A DNA stretch of 44,261 bases from Escherichia phage vB_Ec-G9: the sequence record PQ433351.1; one strand, 5' to 3'. The position numbers and the translations under genes were made by a program. The notes under the pieces were generated by a model. That model did not search any database. It was not told the DNA's origin and saw nothing but the letters and a program-made list of their open reading frames with translations. This document shows positions 1 through 44,123 of the stretch, piece by piece. The first letter of the stretch is position 1. The number at the start of each line of letters is the position of its first letter.

Positions 1-1988
1 TGGCTATTATTCAGAATGTACCGTGTCCTGCCTGTCAAAAGAATGGACATGATGTTACCGGCAACCATCTCATGATCTTTGATGATGGTGCTGGCTATTG
101 CAACCGTGGTCACTTCCACGATAACGGAAAGCCATACTACCATAAGCCCGAAGGTGGCATCGAGATAACCGAGTTGCCTATTACTGGCAATATCAAATAT
201 ACACCTTCTCAGTTCAAAGAGATGGAGAAGGAAGGGAAGATAAGCGACCTTAAGCTACGCGCCATCGCACTAGGTGGTATGCGTATGAAAGACCGTTGGG
301 AGGTTATGAATGAGCAAGAAAGGGCAGACCAAGAAGCAGATTGGAAACTTGATGTTGAATGGTTCCTCACGCTTAAGCGTAAGAACCTTGTATCCCGACA
401 CATTCGCGGCGACATCGCAGCACTATATGATGTGCGAGTGGGCCATGATGAGGAAGGAAGAGTCAATCGTCACTACTACCCCCGCTTCGAGAAAGGTGAG
501 CTAGTAGGCGCTAAGTGCCGTACCTTACCTAAAGACTTTAAGTTTGGTCATTTAGGTAAACTATTTGGTATGCAAGATCTTTTCGGTATGAATACTTTGT
601 CTCACGTGTTAGACAAGGGAAGACGAAAGGATTGCTTGCTTATTGTAGGCGGCGAACTTGATGCACTAGCAGCCCAGCAGATGCTTCTTGATTCCGCCAA
701 GGGCACTAAGTGGGAAGGACAACCATATCATGTGTGGTCTGTCAACAAGGGTGAGTCTTGCCTTGAAGAGATAGTGCAGAACCGTGAACACATCGCTCAA
801 TTCAAGAAGATTATATGGGGCTTTGATGGTGATGAGGTTGGGCAGAAGCAGAACCAACAAGCGGCTCGCCTGTTTCCTGGTAAATCCTATATCCTTGAGT
901 ATCCTTCTGGGTGCAAAGATGCTAACAAGGCATTGATGGCTGGCAAGGCTAAAGAATTTGTGGATGCTTGGTTTAATGCAAAGTCATCTGATGAAGTCTT
1001 TGGTAGCCAGATTAAATCTATCGCATCTCAAAGGGATAAGCTCAAGGCTGCACGTCCAGAGCAAGGACTATCATGGCCTTGGCCTAAGCTGAACAAGGTA
1101 ACGCTAGGTATTCGTAAGAACCAACTTATCATTGTAGGCGCAGGCTCTGGTGTAGGTAAGACTGAGTTCCTTCGTGAAGTAGTTAAGCACCTCATTGAAG
1201 AACACGGTGAATCTGTAGGCATCATTTCTACAGAAGACCCGATGGTCAAGGTGTCCCGTGCTTTTATCGGCAAGTGGATTGATAAGCGTATTGAGTTACC
1301 GCCAACCAACGACCCGAAAGAAGATGGATACCGTGAGGTGTTCGACTACACCGAGGAAGAGGCTAACGCCGCCATTGATTATGTAGCTGATACAGGTAAG
1401 CTGTTTGTAGCTGACCTAGAGGGTGACTATTCGATGGAAAAGGTAGAGCAAACTTGCCTAGAGTTTGAGGCTATGGGCATTTCTAATATCATCATTGATA
1501 ACTTAACGGGGATTAAATTAGATGAGCGTGCTTTTGGTGGGAAGGTTGGTGCACTTGATGAATGCGTCAAGCGGATTGGTACTATCAAAGACCGACACCC
1601 GGTTACTATATTCCTTGTATCACACCTTACACGTCCTCCGGCAAACCGTACCCAACACGAAGAAGGTGGCGAGGTTATCCTTTCTGACTTCCGAGGTTCA
1701 GGCGCTATCGGATTCTGGGCATCTTACGCCTTGGGGATTGAGCGTAATACAAGAGCTGAAACGCTTGACGAAAGGACTACCACGTACATCTCATGTGTCA
1801 AAGACCGCGACCAAGGAATCTGGACTGGAACCAAGGTCATGCTTAAGGGTGACATTCAAACCGGACGTTTAATGGAACCACAAGCCCGTACTAAGTCATT
1901 TGATACAGGTGAAGCAAGGCAACAAGAGGTGCCGGATTTACCGGACACTATAGAAGAGACAACCTTTGACGATGAACAGGAGTTTTAA
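1..1988 (+). CDS. DNA primase/helicase (T7 gp4-like); 5' end runs off the window start, the ATG is formed by pos 44261 + pos 1-2
   Basis: Open in frame from pos 3 with no stop; N-terminal Cys zinc ribbon CPAC...CNRGH typical of primases; Walker A GAGSGVGKT in helicase half; acidic C-terminus ending DDEQEF. Confidence 0.85.
   Translation, partial: AIIQNVPCPACQKNGHDVTGNHLMIFDDGAGYCNRGHFHDNGKPYYHKPEGGIEITELPITGNIKYTPSQFKEMEKEGKISDLKLRAIALGGMRMKDRWEVMNEQERADQEADWKLDVEWFLTLKRKNLVSRHIRGDIAALYDVRVGHDEEGRVNRHYYPRFEKGELVGAKCRTLPKDFKFGHLGKLFGMQDLFGMNTLSHVLDKGRRKDCLLIVGGELDALAAQQMLLDSAKGTKWEGQPYHVWSVNKGESCLEEIVQNREHIAQFKKIIWGFDGDEVGQKQNQQAARLFPGKSYILEYPSGCKDANKALMAGKAKEFVDAWFNAKSSDEVFGSQIKSIASQRDKLKAARPEQGLSWPWPKLNKVTLGIRKNQLIIVGAGSGVGKTEFLREVVKHLIEEHGESVGIISTEDPMVKVSRAFIGKWIDKRIELPPTNDPKEDGYREVFDYTEEEANAAIDYVADTGKLFVADLEGDYSMEKVEQTCLEFEAMGISNIIIDNLTGIKLDERAFGGKVGALDECVKRIGTIKDRHPVTIFLVSHLTRPPANRTQHEEGGEVILSDFRGSGAIGFWASYALGIERNTRAETLDERTTTYISCVKDRDQGIWTGTKVMLKGDIQTGRLMEPQARTKSFDTGEARQQEVPDLPDTIEETTFDDEQEF
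1935..1958 (+). promoter_or_regulatory. phage RNAP promoter embedded in primase/helicase 3' coding region
   Basis: GATTTACCGGACACTATAGAAGAG matches the window's promoter consensus; encodes PDTIEE in frame. Confidence 0.7.
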
Positions 1989-2221: not shown

Positions 2222-2905
2222 ATGTATAAATTAGTATTGAATGTAGGTGATTATGTTCGTAACATCAATGAAGCCTCACGTCGTTATCGTTGCCGTGGTG
2301 TAGTGGCTCGTGTAAGTGAGAACATGTATCATGTAGAATATGATGATGGTATTAAGGCTTCTTATCACAAGAAAACCGCACATAAATATCTTGAAAAGGT
2401 TGTAGAGGTAAACAATCAATGTAAGTGCATACATGATGAGGTTTGCGATAAATGTGCTCGCCAGATGCTTAAGAATTTCCTAGCTCCTCTTTATTATGGT
2501 GCTGGTCCTCAAACACTAGCAGAGTGCATGGCAGAAAAGAAAACCACACTCAAGAAAGAGCGTCGCAATGTAATCACTGGTAAGACTCAAAGTGAGATGA
2601 TTAAGCAATGTGGCACTGCATTAGGTGTTACACAGTTCAATACTCGTGCATTGGGTAAATCCACAGGGCAAGCTATGGTGAAGATTGGCGAAGCCATGAT
2701 GCATCCGAATATACCTGTACGAATCATGGATATAGACCATGCAATCACAGAACATGGGTCTTCACGCCGTGTTATTAACACCCATTTTGCCGACACTATA
2801 GAAGGTATTATTCGTAAGCAAGGTTTGAAGGGTCTTCACATCTTAAATGGTGAAGAATTACTGTACCTACCTATCGTTACTGAAGAGACATACGTGGATA
2901 TCTAA
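2222..2905 (+). CDS. hypothetical protein (228 aa)
   Basis: ORF with RBS GGAG 7 nt upstream of ATG 2222; Cys-rich segment CKCIHDEVCDKC; no recognisable family. Confidence 0.65.
   Translation: MYKLVLNVGDYVRNINEASRRYRCRGVVARVSENMYHVEYDDGIKASYHKKTAHKYLEKVVEVNNQCKCIHDEVCDKCARQMLKNFLAPLYYGAGPQTLAECMAEKKTTLKKERRNVITGKTQSEMIKQCGTALGVTQFNTRALGKSTGQAMVKIGEAMMHPNIPVRIMDIDHAITEHGSSRRVINTHFADTIEGIIRKQGLKGLHILNGEELLYLPIVTEETYVDI
2783..2805 (+). promoter_or_regulatory. degenerate phage-promoter-like sequence inside coding region
   Basis: CATTTTGCCGACACTATAGAAGG: core GACACTATAGAAG intact, -13 to -10 deviate from consensus; encodes ADTIEG in frame. Confidence 0.35.
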
Positions 2906-2915
2906 GGAGTTAATC

Positions 2916-3134
2916 ATGACTAAGGTATTAATTTACATGCGTGGACCTCATAAATGCTATGCAGTTGTAGCACCAAATGGTGTTAAGCCCTATAGTACTT
3001 CAAAAGGATTGGCATTAATAGGTGCTAGTAGTAGTGCAAGTTTCCAAATGGAACTTTTTGGTCATTGGAATGAAAGGCAATTCCGTGAGGATTTTAAAGT
3101 CATTGGCAGCTTCATAGTGAAATATGCAGAATAA
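2916..3134 (+). CDS. hypothetical protein (72 aa)
   Basis: Strong RBS AAGGAG upstream of ATG 2916. Confidence 0.55.
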   Translation: MTKVLIYMRGPHKCYAVVAPNGVKPYSTSKGLALIGASSSASFQMELFGHWNERQFREDFKVIGSFIVKYAE

Positions 3135-3300
3135 ACATAGTCTTAAAATGTTCGATGGTCATGAAGACCTGCAAGCCAAGATTACTAACCAAGCCTTCCT
3201 GTTTGCACAGTTAACTATGGCTGAAGCAAAGAAGAATAGCCTGACGCGTGAACAGGTTATCAAGGAAAGTGAAGTGAAACGTAAGATTCGCAGTCGATAA
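3124..3300 (+). CDS. hypothetical small protein (58 aa)
   Basis: ATG 3124 overlapping upstream stop; below ORF-track cutoff; weak RBS. Confidence 0.3.
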   Translation: MQNKHSLKMFDGHEDLQAKITNQAFLFAQLTMAEAKKNSLTREQVIKESEVKRKIRSR

Positions 3301-3310
3301 GTCAAGGGTT

Positions 3311-3326
3311 GTCTCACACGTGAGAC
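3311..3326. repeat. palindrome variant GTCTCACACGTGAGAC (copy 2)
   Basis: One central base differs from the perfect palindrome; intergenic. Confidence 0.8.
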
Positions 3327-3357
3327 AGCCTTTCATCATATTGATTGGAGGTGCATT

Positions 3358-3465
3358 ATGCCACGTGATTATGATTCTGATTGGGACTATTATGACTCAA
3401 TGAATCCAAAACCCGAACGTTCAGATGATTACTACGAAACAGAGGCAATGTATGAAGACTATTGA
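3358..3465 (+). CDS. very acidic Asp/Tyr-rich micro-protein (35 aa)
   Basis: RBS GGAGG upstream of ATG 3358; sequence MPRDYDSDWDYYDSMNPKPERSDDYYETEAMYEDY; overlaps DNA polymerase start. Confidence 0.3.
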   Translation: MPRDYDSDWDYYDSMNPKPERSDDYYETEAMYEDY

Positions 3466-5998
3466 TTGGAAGAAGGAGGCAGAAGGTCGTATCCTCGTGA
3501 TGGATGCGGAAGCTAAAGGACTCCTTGACGCTATCCGATATGGACACCGTGAAGATGTGCATATCATTTGCTGCATGGATTTGCTTACTACCGAGGAGTT
3601 TCTCTTCTTTGACCCGTATGAGATGCGTGACCCTGAAGCAAGAGAACGCCTGAAGGAATGGGAAGGTCATCAAGATGGAACCTTGGTTGACGGTGTTAAC
3701 TTCCTGAAGCATTGTGAAGCTATTGTGTCACAGAACTTCCTAGGGTATGACGGCCTTCTCTTTGAGAAGGCATTCCCTGATATTTGGAAAGGCTTTAACT
3801 ATACCGAGAAGCGCGGTAAGGGCAGACTCCGTGCTGACCTGTGTCCTATCCGTGTTGTAGATACGCTGGTGATGAGTCGTCTGCTAAACCCAGATAGACG
3901 CCTTCCTCCGCAAGCATATGCCAAAGGCATGGGTAACGTCGCCCCTCACTCAATTGAGGCGCACGGCATCCGTATAGGCCGCTATAAACCAGAGAACAAG
4001 GACTGGTCTAAACTAACTGACCACATGGTTCACCGTGTACGTGAAGACGTGGCAATTGGTCGTGACTTTTTCCTATGGCTTTACAACGGAGAGTGGACGG
4101 AGCACAAACGCCGTGGCGTGAACAAACGTACTGGCCTAGGGATTGAGACAGCCTTCCACATGGAGTCCATTGTGGCGCTGGAGATGAGCCGTCAGGCAGA
4201 GCGTGGATTCCGTCTGGATATTGACAAAGCACTAGCGCGATGCGAAGAACTGGACGCTAAGATTGATGAGACAGTCGCAGCGTTCCGCCCTCACATGCCT
4301 ATGCGTATCAAGTCTAAACCTTTTAAACCGGAAGAAAAGAATGAAGTATGCCAACGCGCAAATGAGTATGGAGCTAGCAACAATATACCTACTGTCCTTG
4401 ACCCCTCACACTTTCTTCATGCCGAGAGACGAGGAGATCGCAAGACAGTATGGAGTGTCACTACTAAGTCTGGTGATTGGTCGGCTAGTGTCAAGAAAGA
4501 CTTTCCTCACCTTAGAGGAAACCGTAATGACACGCCAAGCATCAAGTGGATTGGCGCTTACTCGCCTGTTACTTTCGAAGAGATTCCCTTGGGTAACAGG
4601 GATACAGTTAAGCAAGTGCTCTATGATTATGGATGGAAAGGTGTTGAATTTAACGATACCGAGCAAGCGCATCTCGATGAGCACGGAGTGTTACCCAAAC
4701 CTTGGAGTGGTAAGATAAATGAAAAGTCCCTTACTTTATGGCAAGAAAGAGCCGCACGTGAAGGTAAAACAGTCCCTGATTGGTGCTTGGGTATCGCTGC
4801 ATGGTACATACTCGTATCCCGTCGTGGTCAGATACTCAACCGTGGTGACGTTGAAGCCTTCAACGAGAAGGGAACGTGGCCCTCGCAGGCTGGTGTACGA
4901 AAGTGTCGCGGCCTTGTACCTGTAGCATTCAACAAGGAGCTAGGAATCAATGCGCAGCAATACTACGAGAGGTACGGATGTTGGCCTACGTCTGACAAAG
5001 ATGACGGAGAGTGGCGTGTTCCAGCTGTTGCTATTAGCATTGGCACTTCTACGTTCCGTATGCGTCATCGTAACGTGGTTAATATTCCTGCCCGTGGCTT
5101 GTATCCTTTACGTGATTTATTCATAGCAGGGAAAGGCAAGCTAATCCTTGGTTGTGACGGTGCAGGTCTTGAACTGCGTGTCCTGTCTCACTTCATGAAT
5201 GACCCTGAGTACCAAGAGATTGTACTGCACGGTGATATTCATACGCATAACCAGATGAAGGCTGGTCTTCCTAAGCGTGATATGGCGAAGACGTTTATAT
5301 ACGCCTTCCTCTATGGCTCTGGTATAGCCAACCTTGCAGCAGTATGTGGTGTTACTGAGGAAGAAATGAAGGAAGTTGTGGCAAGATTCGAGATTGAACT
5401 ACCATCTCTTGCACGTCTTCGTGAGAATGTTATCGCACAAGGTAACAAGTTTGGCTACCTGCAAGCACCTGATGGACATTGGGGTCGCATCCGCATGTCT
5501 GGTGGTGAACTTAAAGAGCACACGATGCTTAACGTATTACTCCAGATGACTGGCTCTTTGTGTATGAAATATGCATTAGTCAAGGCATTTGCAGTAATGC
5601 GCAAGGAAGGTGTAGCCTTGGATGCTATGGGAAATCCTTGTGGTGTGGCTAACGTGCATGATGAAATCCAGATGGAAGTTCCTGAAGAGGAGGTCTTGTA
5701 TCTTAACTACGACCTACCTTTCACCTTAGATGGGTTCGAAACAGAGAAGGTTGCCGTGAAAGCAGTGTTCGATGCAGAGGAGAAACGTGTTCATGTGGAT
5801 TCTGAAGGACGTATGTGGTCTGCTGCAAACCTAGTTAGTGTTGATGCTGATGCTGGTGTATTGCATTGCCAGCGCCGTTATCACCGTGCAGGTCATATCA
5901 TTGCCGACGCCATGACTTGGGCAGGGCAGTATCTGAAGATGCGTTGCCCGATGGCAGGCGAATATAAGATTGGCGCAAGTTGGAAGGAAACACACTGA
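3452..5998 (+). CDS. family A DNA polymerase with 3'-5' exonuclease domain (T7 gp5-like)
   Basis: Exo motif ILVMDAEA near N-terminus; pol motifs DGAGLELRV, KTFIYAFLYGSG, VHDEIQ; start placed at ATG 3452 (RBS GAGG) rather than ORF-track 3425. Confidence 0.9.
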   Translation: MKTIDWKKEAEGRILVMDAEAKGLLDAIRYGHREDVHIICCMDLLTTEEFLFFDPYEMRDPEARERLKEWEGHQDGTLVDGVNFLKHCEAIVSQNFLGYDGLLFEKAFPDIWKGFNYTEKRGKGRLRADLCPIRVVDTLVMSRLLNPDRRLPPQAYAKGMGNVAPHSIEAHGIRIGRYKPENKDWSKLTDHMVHRVREDVAIGRDFFLWLYNGEWTEHKRRGVNKRTGLGIETAFHMESIVALEMSRQAERGFRLDIDKALARCEELDAKIDETVAAFRPHMPMRIKSKPFKPEEKNEVCQRANEYGASNNIPTVLDPSHFLHAERRGDRKTVWSVTTKSGDWSASVKKDFPHLRGNRNDTPSIKWIGAYSPVTFEEIPLGNRDTVKQVLYDYGWKGVEFNDTEQAHLDEHGVLPKPWSGKINEKSLTLWQERAAREGKTVPDWCLGIAAWYILVSRRGQILNRGDVEAFNEKGTWPSQAGVRKCRGLVPVAFNKELGINAQQYYERYGCWPTSDKDDGEWRVPAVAISIGTSTFRMRHRNVVNIPARGLYPLRDLFIAGKGKLILGCDGAGLELRVLSHFMNDPEYQEIVLHGDIHTHNQMKAGLPKRDMAKTFIYAFLYGSGIANLAAVCGVTEEEMKEVVARFEIELPSLARLRENVIAQGNKFGYLQAPDGHWGRIRMSGGELKEHTMLNVLLQMTGSLCMKYALVKAFAVMRKEGVALDAMGNPCGVANVHDEIQMEVPEEEVLYLNYDLPFTLDGFETEKVAVKAVFDAEEKRVHVDSEGRMWSAANLVSVDADAGVLHCQRRYHRAGHIIADAMTWAGQYLKMRCPMAGEYKIGASWKETH

Positions 5999-7071: not shown

Positions 7072-7875
7072 ATGGCACGTAATTTTGATTTTGGCGCAGA
7101 GGTCACTAAGTCAGAAGGTAAAGTATTTAAGAACCCAGAAGTGGGCGACCATGAAGCTGTAATCTCTGGAATCATTCATGTTGGTTCCTTCCAAGATATC
7201 TTTAAGAAAGGCAATACCACTGAAGTTAAGAAGCCAGCAAACTTTGTTCTTGTTAAGATTGTCCTGATGGGTGATGATGACAAGAACGAAGATGATTCAC
7301 GCATGGAACAGTGGATGGCTGTGCCTCTGAAGTCAGGTGATAAAGCTACTCTGACTAAGTTCCTGAATGCAGTTGATCCTAAAGAACTGCTGGGTGGCTT
7401 CGATGACTTCATCGGTGAATGCCTGACTGCAACTATGGTTGGCTCTGGCGACAAGAATGATGATGGTACTTTCAAGTATGTTAACTGGAAAGGCTTTGGC
7501 GGTATGCCTGATAAGTTGAAGAAGCTTGTACTGGCTCAGGTAGAAGAGGAAGGTCTGTCTATGACAGGTCATATCACCTTCGACAAGCTGACCAAAGAAA
7601 TCCTTGATGACATCCCAGCTAACTTGGTACGTCAATACTTCCTGAACGAGACACCTCGTGGTAAGAACCTGTCTGTTGCTGGCTCTCACGTAGAAGCTAT
7701 TATCAAAGCTGCTCGTGAAGAAGACCCAGAGTGGAAGAAAGCCAAGAAGAAAGATGACGAGGATGCTACTCCAGCTAATCGTAAGTCTCTGGATACTGGC
7801 GAGTCTGTTCCACAGGAAGTACCTGAAGCAGAAGATACTCCTGCACCGGAGATGGATGAGGACGCGGAATATTAA
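7072..7875 (+). CDS. abundant protein with acidic C-terminal tail; candidate ssDNA-binding protein (267 aa)
   Basis: RBS AGGAG; highly biased (expression-type) codon usage; C-terminus EMDEDAEY; position and tail resemble T7 gp2.5 logic; sequence similarity not established. Confidence 0.6.
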   Translation: MARNFDFGAEVTKSEGKVFKNPEVGDHEAVISGIIHVGSFQDIFKKGNTTEVKKPANFVLVKIVLMGDDDKNEDDSRMEQWMAVPLKSGDKATLTKFLNAVDPKELLGGFDDFIGECLTATMVGSGDKNDDGTFKYVNWKGFGGMPDKLKKLVLAQVEEEGLSMTGHITFDKLTKEILDDIPANLVRQYFLNETPRGKNLSVAGSHVEAIIKAAREEDPEWKKAKKKDDEDATPANRKSLDTGESVPQEVPEAEDTPAPEMDEDAEY

Positions 7876-7884
7876 GGAGAAAGG

Positions 7885-8103
7885 ATGAAAGTACAAATCG
7901 TAACCCTGCACTGCAAGAAAGGTATCACAACGCTCGGAGGTGGCACTTTCCACTCTTTCTCCGAAGGGGAGATTTATGCTGACCTGCACTACATCTGGCG
8001 CGACGGACAGCACGTGGTGAACTACAGCGACCCAGCTACGGGGAAACGCCACGGCGTATCGCTTCCGGCGCATGACATTGCTCAGGTGAACACAGTTTTA
8101 TAA
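7885..8103 (+). CDS. hypothetical protein (72 aa)
   Basis: RBS AAGGAG upstream. Confidence 0.55.
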   Translation: MKVQIVTLHCKKGITTLGGGTFHSFSEGEIYADLHYIWRDGQHVVNYSDPATGKRHGVSLPAHDIAQVNTVL

Positions 8104-8104
8104 A

Positions 8105-8120
8105 GTCTCACATGTGAGAC
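8105..8120. repeat. 16-bp perfect palindrome GTCTCACATGTGAGAC (copy 3)
   Basis: Exact; lies 15 bp upstream of promoter at 8136. Confidence 0.9.
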
Positions 8121-8135
8121 AAATCGGTGTCCGGT

Positions 8136-24896: not shown

Positions 24897-24913
24897 TACC
24901 TAACTCAAGGCTT

Positions 24914-24929
24914 GTCTCACATGTGAGAC
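24914..24929. repeat. 16-bp perfect palindrome GTCTCACATGTGAGAC (copy 4)
   Basis: Exact; flanks GCTTG...CAGGT; between the two large internal virion protein genes. Confidence 0.9.
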
Positions 24930-24960
24930 AGGTCTTTATGATAGGCACTATGGAGGATTT

Positions 24961-37154: not shown

Positions 37155-37616
37155 ATGGAAGTTTGGAGGCCTATTGCTGGTATACCAGATTACATGGTTT
37201 CCTCCTTTGGTCGTGTTAGATCTCATAAAAGAGGTAAGGTTACTATACTAAACCCTCCGCACGACAAAGGAGGTTATCGTAATGTTGTGCTACGTGTTAA
37301 TGGTGAAAAGATAAATCGCAAGGTACATAGGCTTGTGGCAGAGGCTTTCTTACCTAACCCTCACGGTTTACCTCAAGTAAATCACAAGGATGAAGTAAGA
37401 GACAATAATCATGTAAGTAATCTGGAGTGGTGTGATTGTGCATACAACGTAGATTACTCTCAAGCAGCTACTTATACTGTGATGTGCCCTAAAGGTAATA
37501 TCTTAGTAGTAAGGAATGTGGCTAAGTTTTGTAGGGAAAACGGATTAAGCAGTGGTTCTTTTACAGATATGCTTAAGGGAAGACGTAAGCAACATAAGGG
37601 TTATCGCTTAGTGTAA
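37155..37616 (+). CDS. HNH homing endonuclease (NUMOD4 + HNH)
   Basis: WRPIAGIPDYMVSSFGRV (NUMOD4-like) and VNHKDEVRDNNHVSNLEW (HNH). Confidence 0.8.
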   Translation: MEVWRPIAGIPDYMVSSFGRVRSHKRGKVTILNPPHDKGGYRNVVLRVNGEKINRKVHRLVAEAFLPNPHGLPQVNHKDEVRDNNHVSNLEWCDCAYNVDYSQAATYTVMCPKGNILVVRNVAKFCRENGLSSGSFTDMLKGRRKQHKGYRLV

Positions 37617-38093: not shown

Positions 38094-38238
38094 TTGCACA
38101 TGCAAGCATGTAAGATGCCATTAGGTCGCGGTCGGTAGACCGCTAAAGAAAGAGAATAGTAATAAGATGCAGTAGGAGGAACACCAGAAACCTAGCCAAC
38201 CTAGCCTATCCTAGCTCTGTATCTATTGCTTTTCCTTA

Positions 38239-38254
38239 GTCTCACATGTTAGAC
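38239..38254. repeat. palindrome variant GTCTCACATGTTAGAC (copy 5)
   Basis: One half-site base changed. Confidence 0.75.
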
Positions 38255-38288
38255 AACCTAGCTTATTCTTAGTGATGATAACTTAGTG

Positions 38289-39158: not shown

Positions 39159-39253
39159 TTTGGAAGGTAGCTTCTTAGTCGGGATAGGTTAGACCTAGGG
39201 CATTCTTTGAGTGCCCTATAATGTAACCTAACTAACTAATGAGGATTAATAAC

Positions 39254-39610
39254 ATGGCTATGTCTAATATGACTTACTCTCAGGTTTACAACACCGCTCA
39301 CGCTGCATTAGTTGAACGTATCTGGGATGATGCTATTGATTGTATCGATAACGCACATGATGCAATCCATGAGGTGGCGGATAGTGCTGTACCAATCTAT
39401 TATGCTGACATCTTCTCAGTGATGGCCAGTGAAGGCATCGACCACTTCTTCGAGGATTCTGGCTTAATGCCAGACACTAAGGATGTGACGGTCGTACTAC
39501 AAGCCCGTATTTATGAACAACTCACCATTGATTTATGGGAACGTGTTCAAGATATGATTGATGCGTACATCGACTCAGCCGAAGATTTAGAAGAAGAAGA
39601 GGAAGAATAA
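39254..39610 (+). CDS. ocr: Ocr-like DNA-mimic anti-restriction protein (T7 gene 0.3 homologue)
   Basis: MAMSNMTY... [18 protein letters not shown]...[13 protein letters not shown]...[15 protein letters not shown] closely matches T7 Ocr as recalled; acidic EEEEEE C-terminus; RBS GAGGA. Confidence 0.85.
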
Positions 39611-43420: not shown

Positions 43421-43454
43421 CCTACTACCTGTAACATTTCATTAACATAAACGT

Positions 43455-43470
43455 GTCTAACATGTGAGAC
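43455..43470. repeat. palindrome variant GTCTAACATGTGAGAC (copy 6)
   Basis: Mirror-image variant of copy 5; abuts promoter at 43471. Confidence 0.75.
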
Positions 43471-43495
43471 TTATTTACCGGACACTATAGGATAG
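43471..43495 (+). promoter_or_regulatory. phage RNAP promoter
   Basis: TTATTTACCGGACACTATAGGATAG. Confidence 0.7.
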
Positions 43496-43630: not shown

Positions 43631-43640
43631 GATCTAGGTT

Positions 43641-43656
43641 GTCTCACATGTGAGAC
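43641..43656. repeat. 16-bp perfect palindrome GTCTCACATGTGAGAC (copy 7)
   Basis: Exact; 4 bp upstream of promoter at 43661. Confidence 0.9.
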
Positions 43657-43660
43657 TTCG

Positions 43661-43706: not shown

Positions 43707-44123
43707 ATGCGTAAATCATTAGCTCAAAGAGTAGAGCAAGCAGGTTATACTATACAAGACGACGGCACTATCAAAGGTAAACGAGGTAACACCTTGAAAC
43801 CCTGGCTTCAATCTTCAGGATATCCAGTTGTAAATATAGTATTCAAGAAAGGTACAAGAACAACTACCCTTGTGCATCGCATAATTGCTAGTAAGTATTG
43901 TCCTTGCTCTGACCCATTGGCTAATGATGTAAACCACAAAGACGGAAACAAGACTAATAATGCAGCTTCTAATCTTGAATGGATTACACGTAGGCAGAAC
44001 CGTAATCACTATTTAGGTTTTGAGGACTATATGATACTTACGGCAGATGATGCCCGTAAGAAGAATAATGAGCGCACTATTGCTCGACGTAAATTACTTA
44101 AACAGTTGAATAATAAGGATTAA
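43707..44123 (+). CDS. HNH homing endonuclease
   Basis: LVHRIIASKY ... VNHKDGNKTNNAASNLEW; RBS GGAGG. Confidence 0.8.
   Translation: MRKSLAQRVEQAGYTIQDDGTIKGKRGNTLKPWLQSSGYPVVNIVFKKGTRTTTLVHRIIASKYCPCSDPLANDVNHKDGNKTNNAASNLEWITRRQNRNHYLGFEDYMILTADDARKKNNERTIARRKLLKQLNNKD

Follow-up and report, generated by a model that had tools for sequence, protein, structure and literature searches.

A short acidic gene under amino-acid-level constraint precedes the DNA polymerase gene in SP6/K1E-type phages

Introduction

Roughly half of the genes of the K1E/K1-5/SP6 phages, a group employed in therapy and biocontrol, are without a known function. In Escherichia phage vB_Ec-G9 (sequence record PQ433351.1), an extremely acidic open reading frame of only 35 codons, rich in Asp and Tyr, runs into the start of the DNA polymerase gene. 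The question raised by this locus is whether such a micro-ORF encodes a protein under selection and, if so, whether that protein acts on a partner elsewhere or serves only to set the expression of the gene behind it. An original prediction, made from the letters of the whole 44,261-nucleotide stretch analysed here (the window), had left both readings standing: a real micro-protein with a composition like that of small DNA-mimic inhibitors, or only a translational coupling element for the polymerase.

A comparison of the 601 bases around the micro-ORF with phage records gave 84 matches, the top ones being Vectrevirus genomes with 99.0-99.7% identity; the window is therefore assigned to a K1E/K1-5-like phage (Autographiviridae, Molineuxvirinae). 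It is permuted and begins inside the primase-helicase gene.

The micro-ORF has been catalogued since the K1E genome, where its homologue is annotated as gene 11.5 (gp11.5, CAJ29415.1), and no characterisation of it was found. A tblastn search with the 35-aa product recovered 77 phage records, and residues 1-35 align with positions 1-35 of PHROG 15473, a 35-position family of unknown function (E=8.3e-22). The identical protein is present on 275 public contigs solely under the name "hypothetical protein". Neither Pfam (E<=1) nor NCBIfam holds a family for it, and the family profile matched no PDB sequence at E<=10. A HMMER scan of 1.84 billion representative proteins returned only 10 clusters, all free-standing and 30-53 aa long, and no fusion to a larger protein ("Rosetta stone" link) among these representatives. 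In the literature, the mention of gp11.5 that was found is a BLAST match in an annotation table only (PMC4837284). The literature search found no functional, proteomic or ribosome-profiling study of gp11.5, and the string DSDWD occurred there in unrelated contexts only, such as the acidic region of a WASP-family protein.

Organization of the locus

The features on which the analysis rests are the following, from the promoter to the polymerase gene:

1936..1956, + strand: nearest full-consensus phage promoter upstream, ATTTACCGGACACTATAGAAG (pattern search)
3124..3300, + strand: gp11-like gene, 58 aa, PHROG 5754, function unassigned; same order in K1E
3306..3331, + strand: conserved RNA stem-loop of 11 bp with a 4-nt loop (predicted fold and comparison of relatives)
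3347..3352, + strand: Shine-Dalgarno sequence (SD) GGAGGT of the micro-ORF (read from the sequence)
3358..3465, + strand: micro-protein gene, K1E gp11.5 family, PHROG 15473 (ORF list and PHROG match)
3370..3399, + strand: conserved core YDSDWDYYDS, codons 5-14 (family pattern [YF]DSDWD[YFW]xD[SR])
3400..3462, + strand: variable acidic/aromatic C-terminal half, MNPKPERSDDYYETEAMYEDY, under weaker constraint and with the polymerase SD inside
3442..3445, + strand: the polymerase's own SD, GAGG, within micro-ORF codons E29/A30 (read from the sequence)
3452..5998, + strand: DNA polymerase gene, family A, 848 aa, at its probable true start (Pfam DNA_pol_A; conserved N-terminus)

Lying on the coding strand, the micro-ORF fills the single gap that separates the stop of the gp11-like gene (3300) from the polymerase. 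The original prediction had described a strongly acidic 35-aa ORF that has a good ribosome-binding site and overlaps the polymerase start, and each of these elements was recovered. The frame opens with ATG at 3358 and closes with TGA at 3463-3465; the program-made ORF list gives 35 codons before the stop and the product MPRDYDSDWDYYDSMNPKPERSDDYYETEAMYEDY, in agreement with the translation quoted earlier, with DYDSDWDYYDSMNPKPER as its tryptic fragment. GGAGG (3347-3351) lies 6 nt 5' of the ATG. Twelve residues of the product are acidic and three basic (net charge -9; Asp+Glu 34%), eight are aromatic (23%), and Tyr and Trp are abundant. The window contains 376 six-frame ORFs of 30 aa or more, and in this set it alone reaches 30% Asp+Glu, a composition that chance would not give.

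The extent of the overlap depends on where the polymerase begins. ATG 3425 opens its longest reading frame and is given as the gene start in some GenBank records, which thereby absorb the micro-ORF. The true start is nevertheless probably ATG 3452, because the N-terminus MK[TS]IDWKK is conserved (homologues begin with MKTIDWKK, MKSIDWKK or MKDIDWIK) and the internal GAGG at 3442-3445 stands 6 nt before this ATG. It follows that the two genes share 14 nt (3452-3465). The closest solved relative of the window polymerase is the T7 DNA polymerase.

Evolutionary constraint on the encoded protein

Homologous loci were gathered in two ways. One set was anchored on homology to the polymerase N-terminus, independently of the micro-ORF, and comprised 19 IMG/VR loci; the other came from a protein-database profile search, whose alignment had the 53-aa SP6 homologue as its first sequence, and the contigs encoding the proteins found were then retrieved. 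Among the 19 polymerase-anchored loci, a DSDWD-type ORF is present in 15, a related 53-aa ORF in one (SP6) and an unrelated acidic 54-aa ORF in one, while the remaining two (L016 and L017) carry no ORF. The unrelated 54-aa frame (...DLWEVDDGGY; L020 2350-2514) belongs to a more distant relative, has a poor SD and is a putative gene.

The window's micro-ORF is a member of the K1E gp11.5 family, with the core motif at residues 5-14 and the gp11-like gene and hairpin upstream. In relatives it keeps its place directly 5' of the polymerase or of an inserted gene, gp12 or HNH. ATG is the first codon of every DSDWD-type homologue, and GGAGG or TGAGG precedes this codon by 5-9 nt in all 30 homologous loci examined.

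Such a frame could in principle be a chance ORF in an intergenic leader, its conservation being due to a nucleic-acid element. Its very short length speaks for this, as do the GenBank records in which it is left unannotated and the polymerase is extended across it (for example, AAPEc6 and VEc3). The substitution pattern argues strongly in the other direction. Over 23 distinct nucleotide versions of the ten-codon core [YF]DSDWD[YFW]xD[SR], synonymous sites are close to saturation (pS 0.75) and the amino acids are preserved (pN 0.11; pN/pS 0.15), a set that was partly gathered by protein similarity, so that pN is biased downward; this and all other pN/pS ratios given here are descriptive, being drawn from non-independent pairwise comparisons without a significance test. 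Shifting the reading of these bases to the +1 or the +2 frame raises the ratio to 1.68 or 1.10, respectively, and stop codons interrupt the +2 frame in 22 of the 23 sequences. Variable columns are distributed 5/5/9 over the three codon positions, and in L023 a Ser codon has switched from TCT to AGC. Residues S7, D8, W9 and D10 are conserved at 90% or more, and D13 is invariant. When only the polymerase-anchored loci are considered, the whole micro-ORF has a pN/pS of 0.30; the corresponding values of the gp11-like gene and the polymerase are 0.20 and 0.08. Constraint is weaker in the C-terminal half, where the ten codons before MYE give 0.57. Together with the ATG and SD shared by all homologues, the restriction of the family to 10 clusters of free-standing proteins and a composition unique in the window, these values leave the chance reading with a negligible probability: the family is narrow and genuine, and a chance ORF is excluded.

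Purifying selection on amino acids, the SD found in all homologues and the strict synteny thus establish the micro-ORF as a real protein-coding gene under constraint in SP6/K1E-type phages, one that is probably translated. The real micro-protein of the original prediction is therefore supported, as is the conservation in relatives by which it proposed to judge the case, given the 77 phage records and the 15 of 19 polymerase-anchored loci, with L016 and L017 as the ORF-less ones.

Alleles, downstream arrangements and the coupling question

In addition to the DSDWD type, a second allele occupies the same place in two well-known phages of the group:

L036 1119-1271: K1-5 gene 12 (50 aa), second allele
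L018 2353-2514: SP6 gp13 (53 aa), second allele

Both genes sit at the same locus as the window micro-ORF and overlap the polymerase by the same 14 nt. They differ from it in the N-terminal half, which is unrelated, lacks DSDWD and contains a predicted amphipathic stretch (PHROG 31436); the likeness to the DSDWD type is confined to the last ~16 aa (...PDY[KQ][FI]ETELMYE[DN]Y). This allele is found in 9 phage records, compared with 77 for the DSDWD type. P0008 is a hybrid that joins a DSDWD N-terminus to a K1-5-like C-terminus. The second allele and this hybrid together indicate recombination breakpoints within a gene of ~100 nt, and the two halves are modular.

The exchange of halves does not follow the replication genes. 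L021, a DSDWD-type locus, has a polymerase 98% identical to that of SP6, and the ORF-less L016 and L017 have polymerases that share up to 93% identity with those of ORF-bearing relatives. Neither the helicase tails nor the polymerase sequence covaries with micro-ORF presence or type. Because halves are swapped or lost among near-identical polymerases, and helicase tails do not track the ORF, the N-terminal module behaves as an exchangeable accessory cassette that does not coevolve with the polymerase.

What follows the micro-ORF also varies. The polymerase comes directly after it in the window, L006 and L009-L012; in a second arrangement, a 72-aa Cys-rich gene (K1E gp12) precedes the polymerase; and in a third, an HNH homing endonuclease does so. 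The micro-ORF is kept in all three. K1E gp11.5 shares 88.6% identity with the window protein and has equal length, SD, hairpin and position after gp11, but in K1E gp12 sits before the polymerase, whereas in the window the polymerase adjoins directly. In the HNH variant, the C-terminal codons of the micro-ORF have been rewritten to hold the endonuclease SD (AGGAGGGAGG), and the tail ...RREDEFETDQMYEDFY remains acidic/aromatic. L016 and L017 retain hairpin, leader and SD, followed at once by the polymerase ATG, which indicates that polymerase expression does not need the micro-ORF.

K1E gp12 (L001 1580-1820; CSCG...CGHC, PHROG 12821) is a cassette, present or absent among relatives, at the micro-ORF/polymerase junction; a duplication of ~25 nt that flanks it takes in the end of the micro-ORF and the start of the polymerase (GAGGCAATGTATGAAGACTATT vs GGAGCAATCTATGAAATCAATT). 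The window lacks this cassette at its 3440-3470 junction, and other relatives have the HNH insert at the same junction. Elsewhere in the window, ORFs resembling HNH homing endonucleases (…NHKD…N…SNLEW…) lie at 37155-37616 and 43707-44123, the latter with the RNA polymerase gene on one side and the primase-helicase region on the other. Phages of this group seem to carry mobile endonuclease genes often and variably.

These arrangements bear on the second reading of the original prediction, which belongs to a broader explanation in cis: translation of the micro-ORF, or its nascent peptide, would set the rate of downstream expression, and the released peptide would be functionless. The geometry fits such a leader, since the micro-ORF stop lies 11 nt past the downstream ATG, the downstream SD is inside the micro-ORF, K1E shows an identical 14-nt overlap with gp12, and the micro-ORF has the stronger SD (GGAGG vs GAGG). 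A regulatory nascent peptide would likewise show amino-acid conservation. An acidic N-terminus and a conserved Trp are traits of some regulatory nascent peptides (TnaC, MgtL-type ribosome destabilisation), and the micro-protein has both. Pure coupling, however, needs no amino-acid constraint, yet the core and the whole ORF show the low ratios given above (0.15 and 0.30). The distance from motif to stop is variable, as ORFs range from 29 to 37 aa with the motif fixed at the N-terminus; the K1-5/SP6 allele lacks the motif; the downstream gene may be the polymerase, gp12 or HNH; and in L016 and L017 the polymerase directly follows the same leader. The stability of the RNA fold of 3290-3480 is ordinary (z = -1.09), so there is no sign of a structure that translation of the micro-ORF would need to open. 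A purely cis-acting leader is accordingly quite improbable, and the narrower proposal of an element serving only for translational coupling fails on the constrained amino acids, the varied downstream gene, the polymerase's own SD and the ORF-less loci. Some coupling from the 14-nt overlap is nonetheless likely.

A ribosome-arrest leader peptide was considered separately and rejected, because a fixed motif-to-stop spacing is absent, ORF length varies between 29 and 37 aa, and the second allele has no motif.

Transcription and the upstream hairpin

Besides the full-consensus promoter at 1936-1956, the pattern search gave a weaker phage promoter match at 2784-2804. A scan of 2800-3800 found no sigma-70 promoters or intrinsic terminators above the shuffled expectation, and Rfam at a permissive threshold gave matches at chance level only across 2900-3900. 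Read in this way, the micro-ORF would be a middle gene, presumably co-transcribed with the polymerase gene by the phage RNA polymerase.

The stem-loop at 3306-3331 stands between the stop of the gp11-like gene and the micro-ORF SD, and is followed directly by a conserved leader, ...CATCATATTGATTGGAGGT. In an alignment of 17 relatives, 99.5% of cells are paired, four pairs have changed on both sides and a U-G pair is kept.

The heart of this element is repeated in the window. The palindrome TTGTCTCAC-NNNN-GTGAGACA occurs in eight copies with at most 2 mismatches, against a chance expectation of 0.83 matches:

597-615, 2165-2183, 3309-3327, 8103-8121, and further 24912-24930, 38237-38255, 43453-43471, 43639-43657: copies of the palindrome

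The copy at 3309-3327 is the RNA hairpin preceding the micro-ORF, with the covarying pairs and conserved U-G seen in relatives. Three copies lie just 5' of phage promoters; three precede a gene start by 30-45 nt, each with a short U-rich run behind it; and one falls within the primase-helicase coding sequence. The copies match no Rfam family and may be RNA processing, stabilising or pause/termination hairpins.

Predicted structure and comparison with known phage proteins

An AlphaFold2 monomer model built from the family alignment has a pLDDT of 62 and a pTM of 0.19, and contains two short helices, at residues 8-14 (7) and 25-29 (5). This low-confidence model offers no stable scaffold and fits a micro-protein without a stable fold of its own; folding on binding would be compatible with it. 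A divalent-cation loop of the DxDxDG type was examined at D6-S-D8-W-D10-[YF] and discarded, because an aromatic residue takes the place of Gly in all members.

The resemblance to small DNA-mimic inhibitors claimed in the original prediction can be traced to charge and no further. T7 gp5.9 is a 52-aa RecBCD inhibitor with a pI of 4 that forms a dimeric, parallel coiled-coil DNA mimic (PMC9836394). The micro-protein is likewise small and very acidic and presumably encoded by a middle gene, but against the coiled coil of gp5.9 it has two mid-sequence prolines and no predicted stable fold. No homology was detected: BLASTP gave no alignment and hhalign a probability of 1.1%, and neither micro-ORF allele is similar to gp5.9. 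High negative charge is also shared with T7 Ocr (gp0.3), which differs as a folded dimer of ~117 aa with early expression, compared with 35 aa and no predicted fold here; Pfam and PHROG show no relationship of the micro-protein to Ocr.

Two observations from this comparison stand apart. T7 gene 5.9 (L037 960-1118) overlaps the exonuclease gene 6 (start 1105) by 14 nt, the same length as the micro-ORF/polymerase overlap, which is probably a coincidence. The window also has its own Ocr-like anti-restriction gene at 39239-39610 (PHROG 2568, E=6e-49), whose product ends in EEEEEE.

A physical likeness is offered by the tails of T7 gp2.5 (SSB; ...PRDEESWDEDDEESEEADEDGDF, that is, ...DEDGDF) and gp4 (helicase; ...STDWSNDTDF), which are short, disordered and acidic, with Trp and a terminal aromatic residue, like the micro-protein; they are attached to folded proteins, whereas the micro-protein is free-standing. 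As in T7 gp4 and gp2.5, acidic tails with a terminal aromatic residue are present on three replication-region proteins of the window: the helicase (72-1988; ...DDEQEF), a 267-aa protein (7072-7875; ...DEDAEY) and a 125-aa protein (end 8585; ...SEEEEF). The 267-aa protein (PHROG 862, a family of unassigned function; no sequence match to solved structures) may be the SSB of this phage group.

These tails suggest that the peptide might be a replisome accessory, a free analogue of T7-type helicase/SSB tails that is produced along with the phage DNA polymerase, binds its basic patches (or the DNA-binding cleft of the SSB) and tunes replisome assembly. The micro-ORF always lies immediately 5' of the polymerase region and overlaps the next start, and the peptide end ...MYEDY recalls the helicase and 267-aa protein ends of the window and those of T7 gp4 and gp2.5. 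Stop/start overlaps are, however, frequent in the window genome. In local alignment, PRDYDSDWD pairs with the gp2.5 tail PRDEESWDEDD, a marginal similarity, as 82 of 2000 composition-preserving shuffles did as well, uncorrected for 5 comparisons; gp4, E. coli SSB and the window's own tails resemble the micro-protein at chance level. The terminal aromatic, present in the window (...EDY) and in most members, is absent from P0010-P0015, P0017 and P0019-P0021, and the family's ends include ...DDYED, ...SEDDQ and ...YYEDC. Conservation resides in the N-terminal motif rather than in the tail, the motif half is replaced or deleted beside polymerases that are 93-98% identical, and helicase tails show no covariation with motif presence. 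A role as a replisome accessory peptide is therefore considered unlikely.

Proposed role

The reading that we tentatively favour, with somewhat less than even confidence, is that of an accessory gene for an unfolded acidic/aromatic peptide acting as a decoy on a basic DNA-binding surface. The micro-ORF and the polymerase gene would be transcribed together by the phage RNA polymerase, and in the replication phase the micro-ORF would be translated with the help of a strong SD of its own, with some translational coupling to the next gene arising from the 14-nt overlap as a side effect. The product, 35 residues with a charge of -9 and rich in Tyr and Trp, would have no stable fold alone. Its functional site would be the nearly invariant N-terminal motif [YF]DSDWD[YF]xD[SR], which would act in trans as a polyanionic/aromatic decoy that occupies the basic nucleic-acid-binding surface of a partner protein.

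As to the class of partner, a host DNA-metabolism, nuclease, nucleoid or defence protein would be favoured over the phage polymerase. The equivalent region of the T7 genome encodes small host-directed inhibitors (gp5.5, gp5.7 and gp5.9). A host target is suggested both by this typical content and by the swapping or loss of the motif half among near-identical replisomes, together with the patchy distribution of the ORF. Inhibition of RecBCD or of restriction, in particular, would be a speculative assignment, and an anti-restriction role would be redundant, because the phage already has an Ocr-like gene. The fixed place beside the polymerase could instead reflect a polymerase-related role.

A bolder version of the decoy reading, which we regard as doubtful, takes gp11.5 as the smallest known phage decoy of this kind, at fewer than 40 residues and unfolded by itself. 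Its acidic, Trp-centred DSDWD motif would mimic DNA or ssDNA, the acidic tails that organise T7-type replisomes, or the host SSB tail, and would thereby either inactivate a host enzyme of DNA processing or defence or gate the phage's own polymerase; the swappable N-terminal halves would then be alternative warheads on a common C-terminal handle.

Conclusions

The micro-protein belongs to a familiar category, that of small acidic phage accessory proteins. For a gene that had been catalogued, our analysis contributes the evidence that it is under selection, defines its motif, shows that it exists as two alleles and is present or absent among relatives, and excludes its reading as a pure coupling element. 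The micro-ORF is a tractable target, as it combines selection, a 10-residue motif and a short peptide that can be synthesised, and nature supplies both knockouts (L016, L017) and an allele swap (K1-5, SP6) for comparison. If the product turns out to inhibit a host nuclease or defence protein, or to regulate the replisome, the small acidic phage inhibitors would extend to unfolded peptides; if it is neither, it would be another small accessory gene of these phages.
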